A stretch of DNA of 33,115 nt from Escherichia coli (GTDB taxonomy: Bacteria > Pseudomonadota > Gammaproteobacteria > Enterobacterales > Enterobacteriaceae), in NCBI RefSeq assembly GCF_003334385.1, contig NZ_QOWN01000049.1; one strand, 5' to 3'. The notes under the pieces are model-generated. The model made no database searches. It was not told the DNA's origin and saw only the letters and a program-made list of their open reading frames with translations. This document shows, piece after piece, positions 8,497 to 18,645 of the stretch (position 1 is its first letter; the number at the start of each line of letters is the position of its first letter). Made by a program: the position numbers and the translations under genes.

Positions 8497-9077
8497 TGAA
8501 CCATCTCATGATTGACACCGAAACACTGGGTAACGGACCGGACGCAGCCATATTCGCGATTGGGGCGGTGTTTTTCGACCCGTTCACCGGAAAGCTGGGC
8601 AAGCAGTTTGAGAAATTCATCGACCCGGTGGATTCAGAACGCAACGGCGGAACCGTCAATGCAGCCACCGCTGTATGGTGGGCCGGACAATCCGTGGAGG
8701 CCAGATCCTGCCTGCGCAACGCAGATGGAACAGAGCTGGCAGCAGTGACCGAATTTCTGGCGTTCATTTCACGCAATATGCATGACGAAAGCCCGGGCAA
8801 TTCACTGAACATATGGTGTAAGGGCGCATCCTTCGATTTCCCGATCCTGAAATCCGCCATAACACGCACAGCCGGAGAAAAAAGCATCCCCTGGTGCTAC
8901 TGGAACGAGCGCTGTATGCGCCCGCTTATCGCCATGGCTGAATCAACTGGATGGAAAATGCCAGGCAGATCAGGAAAAGAGGCCATTGCTCACACCGCGC
9001 TGGGCGACGCCATTTACCAGGCAAAGGTCGTGTCAGAAATCTGGCAGCGCTTCACAACACCATTCCTGAACATATGA
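8496..9077 (+). CDS. DEDDh-type 3'-5' exonuclease (DnaQ-like fold)
   Basis: Motifs MIDTETLG (Exo I), internal acidic residues and HTALGDA (Exo III with His) in a 193-aa protein; coupled to the upstream gene. Confidence 0.8.
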   Translation: MNHLMIDTETLGNGPDAAIFAIGAVFFDPFTGKLGKQFEKFIDPVDSERNGGTVNAATAVWWAGQSVEARSCLRNADGTELAAVTEFLAFISRNMHDESPGNSLNIWCKGASFDFPILKSAITRTAGEKSIPWCYWNERCMRPLIAMAESTGWKMPGRSGKEAIAHTALGDAIYQAKVVSEIWQRFTTPFLNI

Positions 9078-12229: not shown

Positions 12230-12646
12230 ATGAAGAGCGTTAAGGGACTTTCAGATATTCAGGACTTCTTTAACTGGATGTGGGCGGTGGATCCCCTGCT
12301 GGCTTCCCGCCTGAACAACTGGCACGACTACTACCGCCGCGCCTGTAAACAGGCCGCCCGCAGCATCACCACATACGGGGATTTCTCCTTCACCGTTGAC
12401 GGTCGTTACCGCGTGGACGTGAAAGGTGACGGTGATGGCTTTGGTTTATTTCACATCAACGGCACCGACAGTACCGCCATCAGCTGGTCATCGTCAGAGA
12501 TGGCACTGGTTCTGGAAATGACAACCCACAGCGTGGCCGTGAAAGGCATATACACCGCAGAAGACTTTATCGGTGAATACCAGCGCCTTCTCGTGCTGTA
12601 CCGCGCGGCGTTTCAGGAGGTCACTGGCGGGGAGTACGACGCATGA
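12230..12646 (+). CDS. Hypothetical protein (138 aa) preceding replication gene A
   Basis: ATG 12230 with ggagg RBS; stop overlaps the A start (ATGA). Confidence 0.6.
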   Translation: MKSVKGLSDIQDFFNWMWAVDPLLASRLNNWHDYYRRACKQAARSITTYGDFSFTVDGRYRVDVKGDGDGFGLFHINGTDSTAISWSSSEMALVLEMTTHSVAVKGIYTAEDFIGEYQRLLVLYRAAFQEVTGGEYDA

Positions 12647-15156
12647 GTGACCGCAATGCACAGCTGGCGTACCCGTGGAACGCACCGCTACCGGTTATCG
12701 ATCCTGAAACGTTCGGCAGAGCACAACCAACCGCATTACGCCAGGCCATTCAGAGCTACATCAACGAGGACATTCGCATTGATGCCAGACTGGATGAAGA
12801 AACCGTCTCCTTCCTGACAAACACAGACGAAGGCAAGCGAATTAATTCGCATCTTCACCACGACGAAGAGCGTCGGGTCAGACTGGAAAAACTGGCGAAG
12901 CACAAACGCGAGAATCCGCCCACGGTGGTATCGGAAGCCATGGCAGAACTTCGCGCCCTGCCCTCGTTTCTTGCCAGTCCGCTCATCCGGGACCTGGCTC
13001 GCCTGAGCCGCAAACAGGAGAGCGCACGCCGGGAAGGGCTTAAGAATAACAGCGCATATGCGGCGGATAACTTCGTTCGTCATGGGCTGCGTGCCCGCCT
13101 GAAACGTATCGCCCGTGTGAATGAACGCTTTGCCACCCCGGCCTTTAAGGCCACCGCCGCCCGCGAACGGCTGGATGAACTGCTTATACTGCCGCAGCTG
13201 AGCCGTGACGAAATCCAGCACCTTGCCACCCTGACCGCCACCGCGTTTTCCGCCGCACTGGAGCGCGCATGTGATGAGATCATCGAAAAGACCGGCAGGG
13301 GTGACGATGACCTGTTCACCTGGTTACTGACCTACCAGTCACTGGCACACATGGCGTTAAAACTGGGTATCACGCCACCCTGCTGGCCGTCGCTGGAAAT
13401 CAGGCCAGACCGCCGCACCGCCCCCAACCCGGAACGGGTGCCGGGTGCGGTCATGCGCCTTTCCTGTGCGACATGGTGGAACAGTCAGTTAAGACACCTC
13501 CGGGACATCTGGCGTGAAGAGCTGTTACGCGCCGCAGGTCTGGTGTCACGTAAGACATCGGTATATATCAGCCATGAAGCGTTACTGGACTGGCGCGAAA
13601 AACGCCAGCGCACCCGCGATTTTCTGAAGGCCTGGGACATCGAGAACGAAGAGGGAGAACGGTTCAGCCTTGAGGATATCTACTGGGCAGGTCTCTCTAA
13701 TCCGCGTAACCGCCGTAACGAGATGATGACCTGCGCCCGGGGAATGGAGCAGGTCGCCGAAGCACGCGGCGACGTGGCGTTTTTCGTCACCGTCACAGCC
13801 CCTTCCCGTTTTCACAGCGTGAACGATGACGGCAGTCTGAACCCGAAATACTGCGGGGCAACGGTACGCGATGCCAGTGATTATCTGGTTTACCGCTTTT
13901 TCGCCGCCGTCCGCAGGGCCATCGACAAGGCCGGGCTGGGCTGGTACGGCGTGCGCACAGTGGAGCCCCACCACGACGGTACACCGCACTGGCACATGCT
14001 GGTATTCACCAGCCAGGAAAACGAAGCCCGTATCACTGAAATCATGCGCAACGCCGCCATCAGGGAGGACCGCGCAGAGCTGGGTGATGATATCTCCCCG
14101 CGTTTTAAATGCGAAAAAATCGACCCGGCAAAAGGCACACCGACAAGCTATATCGCGACCTATATCGGTAAGAACCTGGACGCCAGCGCCTTCATGGGAA
14201 ATGACCCGAAAACCGGCAAACCTTACATCGATAAGGAATCAGGCAAAACCATGGCCGAAACCGTGGAGAACGCCATCGGCTGGGCAGGCCTTCACCGCAT
14301 CCACCAGTTCCAGTTCTTCGGTATCCCGCCCCGCCAGGTATGGCGCGAACTCCGCCGCCTTGCCGGGCAGATGGCCCGTAACCCGACTGCCCCACAGCGT
14401 CTGGACCATGACGACATTGACGCCATACTGGCCGCCGCCGACGTGGGATGTTTTGCCACCTATATCACCCGCCAGGGTGGTGTGCTCATTCCCCGCAACA
14501 CGTACCTGGTCCGCACCGCATACGAAACTGCCGAAGAGGCCAACGACTACGGCGAATTCCCGCAACGCATTTACGGCGTCCGCGCCCCGTTACTCGGGGA
14601 GCGCTACACCATATGCACCCACCCGGACACCTGGAAACTGGTCAGACGTAAGCCGGAAAACGAAGACCGCACGGACGAGGGTTTTGACGTTGAGTGCGGC
14701 TTTGCCGCACCTTGGACTCGTGGCAATAACTGTCCCCATGATGAAAAAACAGACACCGGAGAGGGTAAAACCCCACCACCGGAAACCAGGAAAGAACAAA
14801 AACTGGTCGTCCCGGGAGGTGATTTGGGTGAGTGGTTAAGGTCACTGACCCCCACAGAGCGAAAACAACTCACCAGGCAGCTGAAAGATGCGCCATCTGA
14901 CACAAAAACCGTGAAAACCGGCGGCCCCACCACGCCCGATGACGTCATACATGTGCGTACAGCATTGCCGCTGACTGACGTCACCACCACCGTAATCAAG
15001 TCGGCACTGAGCGCGACGGGCGAGGAGCTACACAGTGGCGCAGCACTTTCCGTACACAGAGGTGCACGCGTTCGCCTGCCTGACGGGCGGATTGTGCACT
15101 GGGATGAGAAATCACGAAGCCTGGTGGCAGCAGATCAACCGGAGGTGAACCCATGA
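12643..15156 (+). CDS. A: Rolling-circle replication initiation endonuclease, P2 gpA family
   Basis: 837 aa with HUH motif (TPHWHMLVF) and paired active-site tyrosines (YIATYIGK) characteristic of P2 A / phiX174 gpA-type nickases. Confidence 0.9.
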   Translation: MSDRNAQLAYPWNAPLPVIDPETFGRAQPTALRQAIQSYINEDIRIDARLDEETVSFLTNTDEGKRINSHLHHDEERRVRLEKLAKHKRENPPTVVSEAMAELRALPSFLASPLIRDLARLSRKQESARREGLKNNSAYAADNFVRHGLRARLKRIARVNERFATPAFKATAARERLDELLILPQLSRDEIQHLATLTATAFSAALERACDEIIEKTGRGDDDLFTWLLTYQSLAHMALKLGITPPCWPSLEIRPDRRTAPNPERVPGAVMRLSCATWWNSQLRHLRDIWREELLRAAGLVSRKTSVYISHEALLDWREKRQRTRDFLKAWDIENEEGERFSLEDIYWAGLSNPRNRRNEMMTCARGMEQVAEARGDVAFFVTVTAPSRFHSVNDDGSLNPKYCGATVRDASDYLVYRFFAAVRRAIDKAGLGWYGVRTVEPHHDGTPHWHMLVFTSQENEARITEIMRNAAIREDRAELGDDISPRFKCEKIDPAKGTPTSYIATYIGKNLDASAFMGNDPKTGKPYIDKESGKTMAETVENAIGWAGLHRIHQFQFFGIPPRQVWRELRRLAGQMARNPTAPQRLDHDDIDAILAAADVGCFATYITRQGGVLIPRNTYLVRTAYETAEEANDYGEFPQRIYGVRAPLLGERYTICTHPDTWKLVRRKPENEDRTDEGFDVECGFAAPWTRGNNCPHDEKTDTGEGKTPPPETRKEQKLVVPGGDLGEWLRSLTPTERKQLTRQLKDAPSDTKTVKTGGPTTPDDVIHVRTALPLTDVTTTVIKSALSATGEELHSGAALSVHRGARVRLPDGRIVHWDEKSRSLVAADQPEVNP

Positions 15157-15557
15157 CACGATTCCATTGTGTACTCCAGCGCCATGATTTCAGCGCCATC
15201 ATGAGTGGACGCATTCCCGCACTGACGCTGAGCGGCGTCAGTGTTCGACCACAGCCAGGCGACGAACTGGAGATCACGATCGCAAACCCCGATCGCAGCA
15301 CAGATACCGTCATGACCGACATCCTGACTGCAAGAATCAACACCGACAGAAGCGCATTCATCGTTGCCGTGCGCCCTCGTCGCGCCATATCAGAGCCTGA
15401 ACCACTGACTCCCGTAGGAAAAATCATGCAGGCATACCACGAAAAACAGACCAGAAAACTCAACGAAGAACTGGCAAGAACGCTGGCCGTCGTTAACCGA
15501 AAAGCGGCAATTGTCCGCTATGTGCATTCGGCCGCCAGCAGGCAATCACGCAGGTAA
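15153..15557 (+). CDS. Hypothetical protein (134 aa), coupled to A
   Basis: ATGA overlap with the A stop; no domain recognised. Confidence 0.6.
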   Translation: MTRFHCVLQRHDFSAIMSGRIPALTLSGVSVRPQPGDELEITIANPDRSTDTVMTDILTARINTDRSAFIVAVRPRRAISEPEPLTPVGKIMQAYHEKQTRKLNEELARTLAVVNRKAAIVRYVHSAASRQSRR

Positions 15558-15605
15558 CAAAAGACCATGAACATGACCAGAAACAGCAAACCGAAGGAGC
15601 ACACC

Positions 15606-15776
15606 ATGAACGACATCAGGAGGATCAGCGACAAAGAGCTTACGAAAATGATTGAGTCGGCGCAGCAGCTGCTTTCACGACGAAATCCGGTTGTGGAAGA
15701 AACATGGTGGGAAAATTTACTGACAGCACTGACCGAACTCCGCGAACGCCGGAACAACGAAGGAGCCGCCAAATGA
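15606..15776 (+). CDS. Hypothetical small protein (56 aa)
   Basis: ATG 15606 (MNDIRRIS...) with aaggag RBS 7 nt upstream; the track ORF starts at 15567; stop overlaps the next start. Confidence 0.5.
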   Translation: MNDIRRISDKELTKMIESAQQLLSRRNPVVEETWWENLLTALTELRERRNNEGAAK

Positions 15777-16111
15777 AGACACCCAGAATGACCGGAAAGG
15801 TAATCATTTTACGCTACCTGGAAACGCACGCACGCTTCAGCGCACCAGAGCTGGTTGAAAAACTGGGCGTGAAAAGGACCATCATTAATCAGGCCGCCGG
15901 AAAGATGGTACGCGAAGGGCTGCTGGTTGTGGACGGGTACACGGACAAGATAACGCATTACCGGAAGCCAACGGAAAAGGAACGACTGGAGCTGGCGCAA
16001 CGGGCAGAATGGCAACAAGAGCCGTCCGTAATTGAAGCCTGCAAGCGCAGCGAAATCATGAAGAGAATTCTGTTTATCTACGGCGCTGGCGAAGAGCTGC
16101 CAGTCATCTAA
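15773..16111 (+). CDS. Winged-helix DNA-binding protein (MarR/PadR-like), hypothetical
   Basis: ATG 15773 with aggag RBS; segment FSAPELVEKLGVKRTIINQAAGKMVREGLLVV has a wHTH pattern. Confidence 0.5.
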   Translation: MKTPRMTGKVIILRYLETHARFSAPELVEKLGVKRTIINQAAGKMVREGLLVVDGYTDKITHYRKPTEKERLELAQRAEWQQEPSVIEACKRSEIMKRILFIYGAGEELPVI

Positions 16112-16143
16112 CCCCAACAATAAAACCAACACGGGAGACAAAT

Positions 16144-16461
16144 ATGCCAACACAGGTTGCAACAGAGGGACGACTGGCAGCAGACCCGAACACAAGGAGA
16201 ACAACCAAAGGAACCAACGTCACAACGGCACAACTGGCGGTATCACTACCCTGCCATGGCGCAGAACAGCCAACCACAATGTGGCTTTACCTTATTTCAT
16301 TCGGGAAGCAGCACGAAGAACTGGCAAAACACAGAAAAGGCGATCTGATTCTGGTGCACGGAAACTTGCAGGTAAACAGGTATCAGGACAAGTACGGGCA
16401 ACAGAAAGAGAGCTGGCAGTTGCTGGCGCAAAGCATTATCAGCTCAAGAACCGGGCGATGA
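16144..16461 (+). CDS. SSB-like OB-fold protein (105 aa, lacks C-terminal acidic tail)
   Basis: Aligns in pattern to the N-terminal OB fold of bacterial SSB (G-L..DP..R....G..V....LAVS...W....FGK..E.....KG....V.G.L....Y.D..GQ); gggaga RBS; followed by an intrinsic terminator. Confidence 0.6.
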   Translation: MPTQVATEGRLAADPNTRRTTKGTNVTTAQLAVSLPCHGAEQPTTMWLYLISFGKQHEELAKHRKGDLILVHGNLQVNRYQDKYGQQKESWQLLAQSIISSRTGR

Positions 16462-16471
16462 CTTCACGCAT

Positions 16472-16511
16472 GTTACCCTCAGCAGCGAGGGTAACACAGG
16501 ATTTCTTTTTT
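16472..16511 (+). terminator. Rho-independent terminator ending the early/replication operon
   Basis: Perfect 9-bp stem gttaccctc / gagggtaac with a 6-nt loop, followed a few nt downstream by a T-tract (tttcttttttt). Confidence 0.6.
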
Positions 16512-17047
16512 CAGTCAAACCGAAATCGGCCGCTTGTCGCGTATGCATAGGTGACCACCGCACCCAGCGCATTCACACGCTTCTTCACATAAATCACATT
16601 ACCATCCTGATAGTCACCGTATGGGTAGCAAATAAATATTGTTTTTTGCAAATCAGGATCATCAACAAATGCCCCTGAACAACTTTTTGAGCTACCGCGA
16701 CTGTACTCATAGGGAGCGGAATAGAATGAATCTTCACCCGGAAGAAAATATATCAGCGTAACCAGGAGGGTAAACAGAATCATCCAGGTAAGAAGGCACA
16801 TACCCGAAAAAAACTTAAGATACGATGTAACCCCGGTAAATTTAGACCGATCAACCAGGTTCTTTTTCAACAGGCACAGTGAGGCAAAAACCGAAAGCAC
16901 CACAGACACTGAAACAAGGCAGTTTGTCGTGAACGAATAAAGGTAGGTAATTCTGTAAACATCGTTTCGCCACCAAATAAAAAGAAAAATCCCCCCCAAA
17001 ACAGAAAGCGTGACAAAAGTTAAATAAGGATATGAGTAATTTTTCAC
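16511..17047 (-). CDS. Hypothetical multi-pass membrane protein (AT-rich cargo gene at the tin/old position)
   Basis: Low-GC ORF with three hydrophobic helices (YLTFVTLSVLGGIFLFIWW, CLVSVSVVLSVFASLCLL, MCLLTWMILFTLLVTLIYFL) and a ~75-aa C-terminal soluble region; start uncertain (GTG 17047 after ggtgag, or ATG 16801). Confidence 0.4.
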   Translation of the reverse strand: MKNYSYPYLTFVTLSVLGGIFLFIWWRNDVYRITYLYSFTTNCLVSVSVVLSVFASLCLLKKNLVDRSKFTGVTSYLKFFSGMCLLTWMILFTLLVTLIYFLPGEDSFYSAPYEYSRGSSKSCSGAFVDDPDLQKTIFICYPYGDYQDGNVIYVKKRVNALGAVVTYAYATSGRFRFD

Positions 17048-17601
17048 AGTTCTCACCCGGCAATACACCACTGATTCAGACAGATGATTATCATCACCAC
17101 CCACCCCCAAAAATCGCAAGATAAAAAATGCACAAAAGCGCACGAAATTGCACAATTTTTCTTATGTGTTTCATCCCCATTCAGCCCAGTAACGGCGCTG
17201 GCTGAGGCCGGTTTGCACGGTGCACGAAAAACGAGGCAATTGCAGTGCGCAGGCGACGAGGGAAGGGCGCCCGAATTGAGGGGTGGAAGGCAGGTTGCTT
17301 TATTTGGGGTCGTATTGCGCGTGATACGCACGCAGTGAAGCCGGTTCTGAAAAAACCACACCGAAACAGAGTCAGAAAAACAGGCCGCCAGAATGCGTCT
17401 GGTTGAGTTTTACGGGGTCGGGATTAAATGCGGAAACATCACACCGCAGGCATGACGCGAAAAAGAGAAAAACCACAGCAAAACATAATGTTAAATGTTA
17501 TTGATGAGTTGAGAAGCGAAAGGTGTATTGCGTTGACAGAGCTGGAGAGTCGGGGCATAAATTTTTTATGCCCCGGCGAAGCAGCCGACAAGCGAAGCGC
17601 G

Positions 17602-18645
17602 TCAGCTGGCGCCATCCTGAAGCAGCGAATAGGGATTAAAGCGCATCACTTCAACCCCAAGCCATTCATTGACATGCTTCATCGCTTCCATGACCGGTTG
17701 CAACTCGTTGATGAAAAATACCCTCGCCGCCTTCTCAACGTCACCGAACGCCGCGTTCCCGTCAGGCATTGCCCCCATCAGCTGAGGCGGTACACGGTGA
17801 GCCGCAAGGATATCGTCGCGGGCACTCCCCTTGATGTTAAGGAATTCGTCCTTCGCGGTGATTTGCTGGAACGGCAGTATTTGCACACCATCCTTGCCGC
17901 CACCTGGCGCGTGCAGAAGGATATTGCGGAACGCCCCCTTGCCACGGGATTCCGTGAGTGTTTTCTTGATGGCTTCCACGCTTTCAGCGTTTGCCTGGGC
18001 GGCACCAACATAGACAATGCACCCGGCATGTGAACCGTTGTCATAGTAGAGCTTGCGGAACGTATCCGCTGAGTTCGACAGACTCACCGACAGCAACCCA
18101 CCGATATACTCCGGCATCCCGTAGATTTCCTGGTTGATATCGGGGTTCAGAACGTGGCACACAGCCCCCTTACGGAAAGCAAATTCAGAACCATCATCAT
18201 TGAGGTACCAGTACGTATCGAGATCACTGCCCCGCCGCGTGTATTTCGCCAGCGCAGGACGAAGCGCAATGGGTTCACCGAACTTGTTGCGGCGGACTTC
18301 AAGATAGGCATTACCGAACACGAACCAGTCCAGCGCAAACGCGGAAAACGCCTGGCGGGACAGTAGCGGATGAGGAACAAAGCAGCCGTTCAGGGCATTA
18401 CGCTTAAAATACAGGGCCGACTGGTGCCATGATGCACAACGCGAGGCGCGAGCAATGGCATTCCAGTCCATGGGGGTGTCATAGTAGCGGCCATTATCGG
18501 CGCACGACATGTTATCAAGCAGATCAAGACGGCTTGCTTCATAAGGACCGTCAAACGTGAAAGCACTGAGTGACGGCGCTGATTTCAGTGCATCAGCCAG
18601 TGAGCCCGTGCCGCGCTTTCCGGTGTATTTTTTACGTTTACTCAT
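17602..18645 (-). CDS. Q: Portal protein, P2 gpQ family
   Basis: 347 aa, size and position matching P2 Q; immediately followed on the same strand by the large terminase. Confidence 0.88.
   Translation of the reverse strand: MSKRKKYTGKRGTGSLADALKSAPSLSAFTFDGPYEASRLDLLDNMSCADNGRYYDTPMDWNAIARASRCASWHQSALYFKRNALNGCFVPHPLLSRQAFSAFALDWFVFGNAYLEVRRNKFGEPIALRPALAKYTRRGSDLDTYWYLNDDGSEFAFRKGAVCHVLNPDINQEIYGMPEYIGGLLSVSLSNSADTFRKLYYDNGSHAGCIVYVGAAQANAESVEAIKKTLTESRGKGAFRNILLHAPGGGKDGVQILPFQQITAKDEFLNIKGSARDDILAAHRVPPQLMGAMPDGNAAFGDVEKAARVFFINELQPVMEAMKHVNEWLGVEVMRFNPYSLLQDGAS

Follow-up and report, generated by a model that had tools for sequence, protein, structure and literature searches.

A mobile prophage gene for a small predicted membrane protein at the P2 cargo hotspot of Escherichia coli, with superinfection exclusion as its tentative function

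The interval between gpA and gpQ is the cargo hotspot of P2-like prophages, and in P2 it carries old and tin (PMC9122126). In the stretch of Escherichia coli DNA analysed here (RefSeq assembly GCF_003334385.1, contig NZ_QOWN01000049.1; 33,115 nucleotides, hereafter the window), this interval holds a low-GC gene on the minus strand, which raises the question of what kind of gene it is and what it does. An earlier note, made from the letters of the window, had read it as candidate exclusion or defence cargo. By its base composition and patchy presence among relatives, the gene is a prophage hotspot moron, and it encodes a small predicted membrane protein. A role in defence is plausible, and a block on phage entry (superinfection exclusion) is our best guess at its function, held tentatively.

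The membrane-protein gene lies between the SSB gene and the portal gene and is convergent with the early operon (Table 1). This operon runs in the order gpA, two small hypothetical genes, a MarR/Ren-like gene and SSB, assignments that matches to PHROG 44 and PHROG 142 support, and the large terminase gene accompanies the portal gene on the right-hand side, also on the minus strand. Because the flanks are gpA to SSB and the portal gene, and because the nearest relatives among sequenced phages are P88-like and belong to the P2 family, the gene is placed in the gpA–gpQ interval, the tin/old position to which the earlier note had assigned it. The note's description of a low-GC frame antisense to the early operon also holds: G+C content is 42.1% in the open reading frame (ORF), against 53.1% in the whole window and 58.7% in gpA. 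In 300-nt windows, G+C content forms a trough of 40–44% at the gene, compared with 51–62% across the replication operon (12600–16499) and 54–58% across the portal gene.

The content of this position varies between close prophages, as the same note had expected of a hotspot. Strain JNEC-KY179, in which the backbone from gpA through MarR and SSB to portal is near-identical, carries a DUF4760 gene and a hypothetical gene (6210–6707 and 7428–7931 of the extracted locus). The 167-aa hypothetical protein, WP_000017881.1, is also present in STEC17-183. Strain Bongo, again with a near-identical backbone, carries a TumE toxin–antitoxin pair and an HVO_A0114-family DNA-binding gene (6216–6964 of the extracted locus), and strain N51, a less similar relative, has an Ogr/Delta-like gene only, with neither SSB nor the three-helix gene. 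Since sibling backbones carry other cargo, the site is a variable hotspot in the P88-like lineage, and the gene combines the two marks of hotspot cargo: a location between gpA and portal, and content that differs among close prophages.

The gene is not new as an object, as a supplementary table in print already includes its protein. Rousset et al. (2022), who surveyed the hotspot across all E. coli genomes, entered it in Table S5B as P2-hotspot 'System #4', with no Pfam domain, '3 TM' and 470 occurrences (PMC9122126). The System #4 sequence (MRTVKNYSYPYLTF...GRFRFD) is that of the window protein save for A55V and a gene call three residues longer, and WP_000801013 appears in the arrangement table of the same study (PMC9122126). 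Entry and window thus share the gpA–gpQ locus and essentially the same protein; the entry gives no function, topology, or lambdoid or non-phage distribution. As the 470 occurrences stand against 18,150 occurrences of the hotspot locus (PMC9122126), the gene is not part of the phage backbone, the alternative that the earlier note had named. The System #4 sequence does not appear in the table of constructs that were cloned and tested, and the systems discussed in the text are others (PMC9122126); the protein seems to have been catalogued only by Rousset et al., apparently without testing there. In the literature searched, including later papers on the hotspot, its accessions and PHROG 1416 went unmentioned and no characterisation was found.

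Evidence that the frame is coding comes from its homologues. The gene sits within a minus-strand ORF spanning 16511..17155 in the program-made ORF list. The same 537-nt coding sequence (CDS) is annotated in RefSeq as WP_000801013.1, 'hypothetical protein', in an E. coli EC2 locus that is 99.5% identical to the window. Compared with four homologues of 51–58% identity, the proportion of nonsynonymous differences (pN) was 0.28–0.33 and that of synonymous differences (pS) 0.74–0.82; the corresponding rate ratio, dN/dS, was about 0.08–0.14 where saturation permits an estimate. The helix-encoding part is also constrained (pN 0.32–0.39, pS 0.71–0.77). On these comparisons, the ORF is a conserved coding gene and not a chance frame.

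The earlier note had left the start codon between GTG 17047 and ATG 16801, and alignment of homologues decides for GTG 17047. In the family alignments this codon coincides exactly with the ATG or GTG starts of homologues, distant members included, and internal Met codons are not conserved. Conservation runs along the full 170–180 residues of the homologues and takes in an N-terminal motif, M/V-K-(K/N)-x-S-Y-P-Y-L, as well as helices 1 and 2; a start at ATG 16801 would cut away two conserved helices. As the homologue starts align with GTG 17047 and the helix-encoding part is constrained, the 178-aa form is taken as the real product.

This product is predicted to be a 178-aa inner-membrane protein. 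Hydropathy analysis identified three hydrophobic segments (residues ~7–25, 43–61 and 82–103), and an AlphaFold model placed helices at residues 5–30, 38–61 and 73–101, in agreement with the three transmembrane (TM) helices of the earlier note. The ~75-residue C-terminus, described there as lacking a recognisable domain, has no Pfam match in this protein or in any of 29 family members. NCBIfam likewise gave no match for the protein, and sequence profiles of the PDB gave nothing meaningful. AlphaFold models the C-terminus as a five-strand beta domain (residues ~103–178) with a weak resemblance to an OB-like barrel. The mean predicted local distance difference test (pLDDT) score of the full-length model was 77; a separate model of the C-domain, built from 28 sequences, scored 87. 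Exactly two cysteines occur in the C-domain of 28 of the 29 family members, both near-invariant; here they are Cys123 and Cys140, a pair presumed to form a disulfide.

The distribution of charge indicates how the protein may sit in the membrane. Averaged over the 29 members, the 18-residue loop between TM2 and TM3 contains 4.4 lysine plus arginine residues and has a net charge of +3.5, the 8-residue N-terminus has a net charge of +1.5, and the 70-aa C-domain is near neutral at +0.8. By the positive-inside rule, this distribution argues for an N-in, C-out topology, which predicts that the N-terminus and the strongly basic TM2–TM3 loop are cytoplasmic and that the C-domain faces the periplasm. 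A short strand in loop 1 (residues 33–36) and the C-domain are both modelled as beta structure, and the predicted topology puts both on one side of the membrane. The C-domain holds nearly all of the non-membrane mass and most of the invariant residues. The parts assigned to the cytoplasm amount to ~8 and ~18 residues and, being so small, would be little able to sense intracellular cues of infection.

Protein searches yield a small family, whose members include genes in phages of two unrelated kinds. A 58%-identical copy in an E. coli P88-like prophage lies between the portal gene and StbB/ParM/gpA, and 52%-identical copies in Salmonella P2-like prophages lie between the portal gene and gpA, one of them beside a YafO toxin gene. 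The lambdoid phages 434, 2B8 and mEp332 encode a protein with 52% identity over 168 aa; they were found only by protein search, a nucleotide search of phage isolates giving no match. In these three phages the gene separates xis from exo and is oriented against the leftward int–xis–exo–bet genes. The 434 gene, CPT_434B_36 ('putative membrane protein'), and PHROG 1416 belong to the same family, although the PHROG 1416 profile covers only the last 90 residues. A survey of IMG/VR yielded 66 loci, 53 lambdoid and 11 P2-like. The gene was always between portal and gpA in the P2-like loci; in the lambdoid loci it was always on the opposite strand and, where the flank was recovered, stood between xis/int and exo/bet. 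A 56-aa ORF precedes the lambdoid copies, and nothing corresponds to it in the P2-like ones.

By sensitive blastn, a family member is present in at least 498 of 5,426 complete E. coli genomes (~9%), in every case on the chromosome, and 22 of these 498 carry the allele of the window. In O157:H7 strain EDL933, a 434-type allele (WP_000120056.1) is intact at 4704–5306 of the extracted locus, within a decayed lambdoid prophage by ybhC whose int is frameshifted and bet truncated. The many O157 genomes sampled all had a match just as long and just as similar, with an annotated CDS over it. In Escherichia and Salmonella, every copy seen was at a prophage accessory position. The gene is low in G+C in every host examined, with 38–42% in each E. 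coli and Salmonella allele, and this composition, together with the occurrence of the gene in both P2-like and lambdoid backbones, sustains the earlier view, based on orientation, composition and location, that it was horizontally acquired. Its base composition is unlike that of the backbone and it is present in some relatives and absent from others, as in a moron. To judge from these comparisons, ~130 nt of conserved upstream DNA and the 537-nt gene make up a self-contained mobile accessory cassette, which moves between the unrelated backbones of P2-like and lambdoid phages.

The upstream part of this cassette can be aligned between the window, phage 434, the E. coli P88-like copy and a Salmonella copy. 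It contains an A-tract followed by three TTGTGCA-like repeats (17155–17149, 17146–17139 and 17135–17129), a block conserved upstream of the gene in both P2-like and lambdoid copies; the count of the TTGTGCA motif across the whole window was not above chance. The block is a possible operator, UP element, promoter element or site for a regulator. In phage 434 the repeats overlap the 3′ end of the 56-aa ORF, annotated as a 'membrane protein', for which protein-level conservation is absent in the P2-like copies. Nearer the gene, within GATGATAATCAT, the motif TG-TAA (17093–17088) is the same in each of the five upstream regions aligned; it stands ~45 nt ahead of the start codon and resembles an extended −10 element, which would put the start of the transcript ~35–40 nt upstream of GTG 17047. 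As the case for a promoter rests on conservation in register, with neither a scan call nor motif enrichment behind it, the element is proposed as a hypothetical promoter. The overlapping sequence GGTGATGATAATCATCTGT (~17081–17099, minus strand), including the core TGATAATCAT, matches 13 of 19 positions of the 19-bp Fur-box consensus. A Fur box around TGATAATCAT was set aside, as other alleles lack the match, which is probably a coincidental overlap with the −10-like element.

The allele of the window also carries a G7 homopolymer at codons 17–19 (TTG GGG GGG), unusual for a 42%-GC gene and lacking from other alleles. The tract is seven long in six sequences, eight long in a second prophage copy of strain DETEC-S792 and nine long in STEC17-183. 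The G8 and G9 variants shift the frame, with premature stops at codons 65 and 60, and no CDS is annotated for them. They could reflect slipped-strand ON/OFF switching or homopolymer assembly error.

What such a protein does can be approached through its closest analogues. SieA of phage P22 is an inner-membrane protein of ~160 residues (162–164) with three predicted TM helices that alone blocks DNA injection (PMC10461980). The window protein resembles SieA in size, in helix count and in being encoded by a single prophage gene antisense to neighbouring genes, its placement in the inner membrane being predicted. The SieA gene has its own promoter and is antisense to neighbouring virion genes. The motif conserved in SieA lies at the C-terminus, on the predicted cytoplasmic side, whereas the C-domain conserved in the window protein is predicted to form a beta-barrel in the periplasm and carries a cysteine pair. 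SieA also occurs in P22-like prophages only, where its gene stands between genes 16 and 9. Old and Tin of P2 occupy the same gpA–gpQ position as the window gene; Old is a soluble ATPase–TOPRIM nuclease and Tin is soluble, whereas the window protein has neither domain and is membrane-embedded by prediction. Both old and tin are opposite in orientation to the early operon and expressed from the lysogen.

The best guess, to which we give somewhat less than even confidence, is that the protein is an anti-phage entry block. It would be expressed from the prophage, from the cassette's own promoter, and, acting without partners on the periplasmic side of the inner membrane, would interfere with genome entry by superinfecting phages; it would probably do so by binding either an entry factor of the inner membrane or the tape-measure or ejection proteins of the incoming phage. 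Action at the envelope is more plausible than cytoplasmic sensing because the mass and conservation of the protein lie on the predicted periplasmic side, the cytoplasmic parts are minimal and there is no sensor partner. That it would act alone is suggested by the lack of any partner gene conserved across the phage and non-phage contexts examined. An entry block would be the simplest envelope activity for a protein of a prophage hotspot. Counted in its favour are the mobility of the cassette, the conserved upstream block, the low G+C content, the architecture, the SieA analogue, the retention in O157 and the precedent of the hotspot, in which several validated defence systems besides Old and Tin have been described (PMC9122126).

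Several results weigh against an entry block. The family shows no homology to known defence or exclusion proteins. PADLOC (2.0) gave 0 matches for the ORF at E values up to 1 and no Old, Tin or other defence profile, which agrees with the earlier note in finding no tin or old homologue. The only profile match was PHROG 1416 (E = 1.2e-49, profile positions 1–90 of 90), a family with no annotated function. Homology to SieA was rejected: hhalign returned a probability of 0.2%, and the FnRYPnEAnnFNK motif of SieA is absent from the family alignment. A consensus promoter scan called no promoter upstream of the gene. E. coli DETEC-S792 (NZ_CP116067.1) harbours two sibling P88-like prophages that both carry the cassette, one intact and one frameshifted, so the gene does not obviously exclude its own phage type, a point of small weight; evidently the cassette did not stop double lysogeny by its own phage type, or was switched off. 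Finally, family members are stable residents of non-phage loci, and a general envelope function would therefore fit as well as defence.

These non-phage homologues are single-copy and 36–47% identical. On Pantoea megaplasmids the gene lies beside fetAB in three species, and also beside an efflux operon. In Serratia it directly follows ptsG (5001–5510 of the extracted locus), and on another contig it follows the sucrose phosphotransferase system (PTS) operon scrKYABR (8001–8543 of the extracted locus). Other distant members are chromosomal orphans flanked by metabolic genes, and one adjoins giant genes of the DUF4062/STAND-TPR type, such as are typically met in defence neighbourhoods. Lambda and HK97 use PTS permeases as entry factors at the inner membrane. 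The position of two non-phage copies directly downstream of PTS permease genes or operons may be a coincidence or a functional hint; as the Pantoea and other contexts do not share PTS neighbours, it is kept as an idea only.

The strongest alternative, which we consider possible but on the unlikely side, is that the gene is a lysogenic-conversion or envelope-fitness factor. Some process of the envelope would be modified or protected by the predicted periplasmic domain, as in tolerance of bacteriocins or colicins, of metal or of other envelope stress, or in colonisation, and the prophage would carry the gene for the benefit of its host. The stable copies in Pantoea, in Serratia and at chromosomal orphan sites fit this explanation, as does the persistence of the gene in the decayed O157 prophage, and the P2 hotspot is known to hold non-defence cargo, including partition systems and cytolethal distending toxin (PMC9122126). 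However, no homology to known conversion or virulence factors was found, the gene was seen only at prophage accessory positions in Escherichia and Salmonella, and the distant member beside DUF4062/STAND-TPR genes points back to defence.

An abortive-infection or membrane effector is a less probable explanation still, and in our view improbable. An infection trigger would lead the protein to permeabilise or depolarise the inner membrane, and the cell would die before phage release. The hotspot is rich in abortive systems, and the TM proteins of hotspot systems are usually read as suicide effectors (PMC9122126); moreover, a frameshift-prone G7 tract with OFF variants is compatible with a costly or toxic gene. 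Yet the gene has no conserved sensor partner, very little of the protein is predicted to lie in the cytoplasm, and it is the predicted periplasmic domain, not the helices, that is most conserved. The gene is also stable in ~9% of complete E. coli genomes and on Pantoea replicons with no antitoxin-like gene as neighbour. A functional short product of 90–96 aa, begun at ATG 16801 or 16783 and using a single N-terminal helix as signal-anchor for the beta domain, is very improbable: the 90-aa PHROG 1416 profile, which matches only residues 125–214 of the long ORF, and annotated entries of 90–128 aa speak for it, but the homologues retain their entire 170–180 aa with the N-terminal motif and helices 1 and 2, pN in the helix part is far below pS, internal Met codons are not conserved and the ATG or GTG starts of distant members align with 17047. 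The 90-aa profile reflects truncated gene calls.

If the entry-block proposal is correct, the few characterised inner-membrane exclusion proteins (SieA, Imm and HK97 gp15) would be joined by a new entry block that is encoded by one gene and is very common; among cargoes of the P2 hotspot, System #4 ranks fourth in frequency. The gene could then account in part for the range of hosts open to phages among clinical E. coli, Shigella and Salmonella, with a bearing on phage therapy, and the predicted periplasmic domain would offer a handle for finding the inner-membrane step that is targeted. A more far-reaching form of the proposal, which we rate as rather doubtful, is that the protein is the founding member of a new periplasm-facing superinfection-exclusion family. 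This family would be common to P2-like and lambdoid phages, would act on an inner-membrane entry step that many phages have in common (such as a PTS-type permease or the tape-measure/ejection conduit), would be present in ~9% of complete E. coli genomes, including the cryptic prophage of O157:H7, and might be G7-switchable in the allele of the window. Should the gene prove not to be defence, it would warn that guilt by association in hotspots misleads. Being common and crossing phage families, it is a reasonable and cheap candidate for testing.

Table 1. Positions of the membrane-protein gene, its upstream elements and its neighbours in the window.
Feature	Position	Strand	Description	Basis
Membrane-protein CDS	16511..17047	-	GTG start, stop codon 16511-16513, 178 aa, 537 nt	Homologue starts, RefSeq, pN/pS, AlphaFold
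G7 homopolymer	16991..16997	-	Codons 17-19	Alignment of allele copies
Shine–Dalgarno-like GGTGAG	~17052-17058	-		Sequence
Candidate promoter −10 region	17081..17100	-	GATGATAATCAT	Upstream alignment
A-tract and TTGTGCA-like repeats	17129..17160	-	A-tract, then three repeats ~10 bp apart	Conservation in upstream alignment, columns 301-335
gpA	12643-15156	+	Early operon; 837-aa replication endonuclease	PHROG/RefSeq
SSB gene	16144-16461	+	Last gene of early/replication operon, left flank	PHROG and RefSeq annotation of identical locus
Hairpin between convergent SSB and membrane-protein genes	16471..16496	.	Perfect 10-bp stem	Inverted repeat; T-run on + strand
Hairpin beside portal gene	17551-17575		11-bp stem	Inverted repeat
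Portal gene (gpQ-like)	17602-18645	-	Right flank	RefSeq annotation, megablast

The hairpin between the convergent SSB and membrane-protein genes is a likely terminator, and its bases are identical in the sibling prophages. On the other side of the gene, a 70-bp block (17536–17606) that contains the stop codon of the portal gene and the second hairpin matches more than 1000 E. coli genomes at ~96% identity, far more genomes than the flanking genes match. The P2 cohesive-end sequence had no match in the window, and the cos site was not located.

Two further genes of the window merit mention. The gene that precedes SSB (15704–16111, plus strand) resembles both MarR-type regulators and PHROG 142 (E = 1e-28), a family labelled 'Ren-like exclusion protein'; RefSeq names it a MarR family regulator, and it is a backbone gene in the sibling prophages. 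In the lysis/tail-side region, a 656-aa ORF (25516–27486, plus strand) matches PHROG 143 from end to end (E = 3e-297), a large protein conserved in phages and carrying no annotated function.

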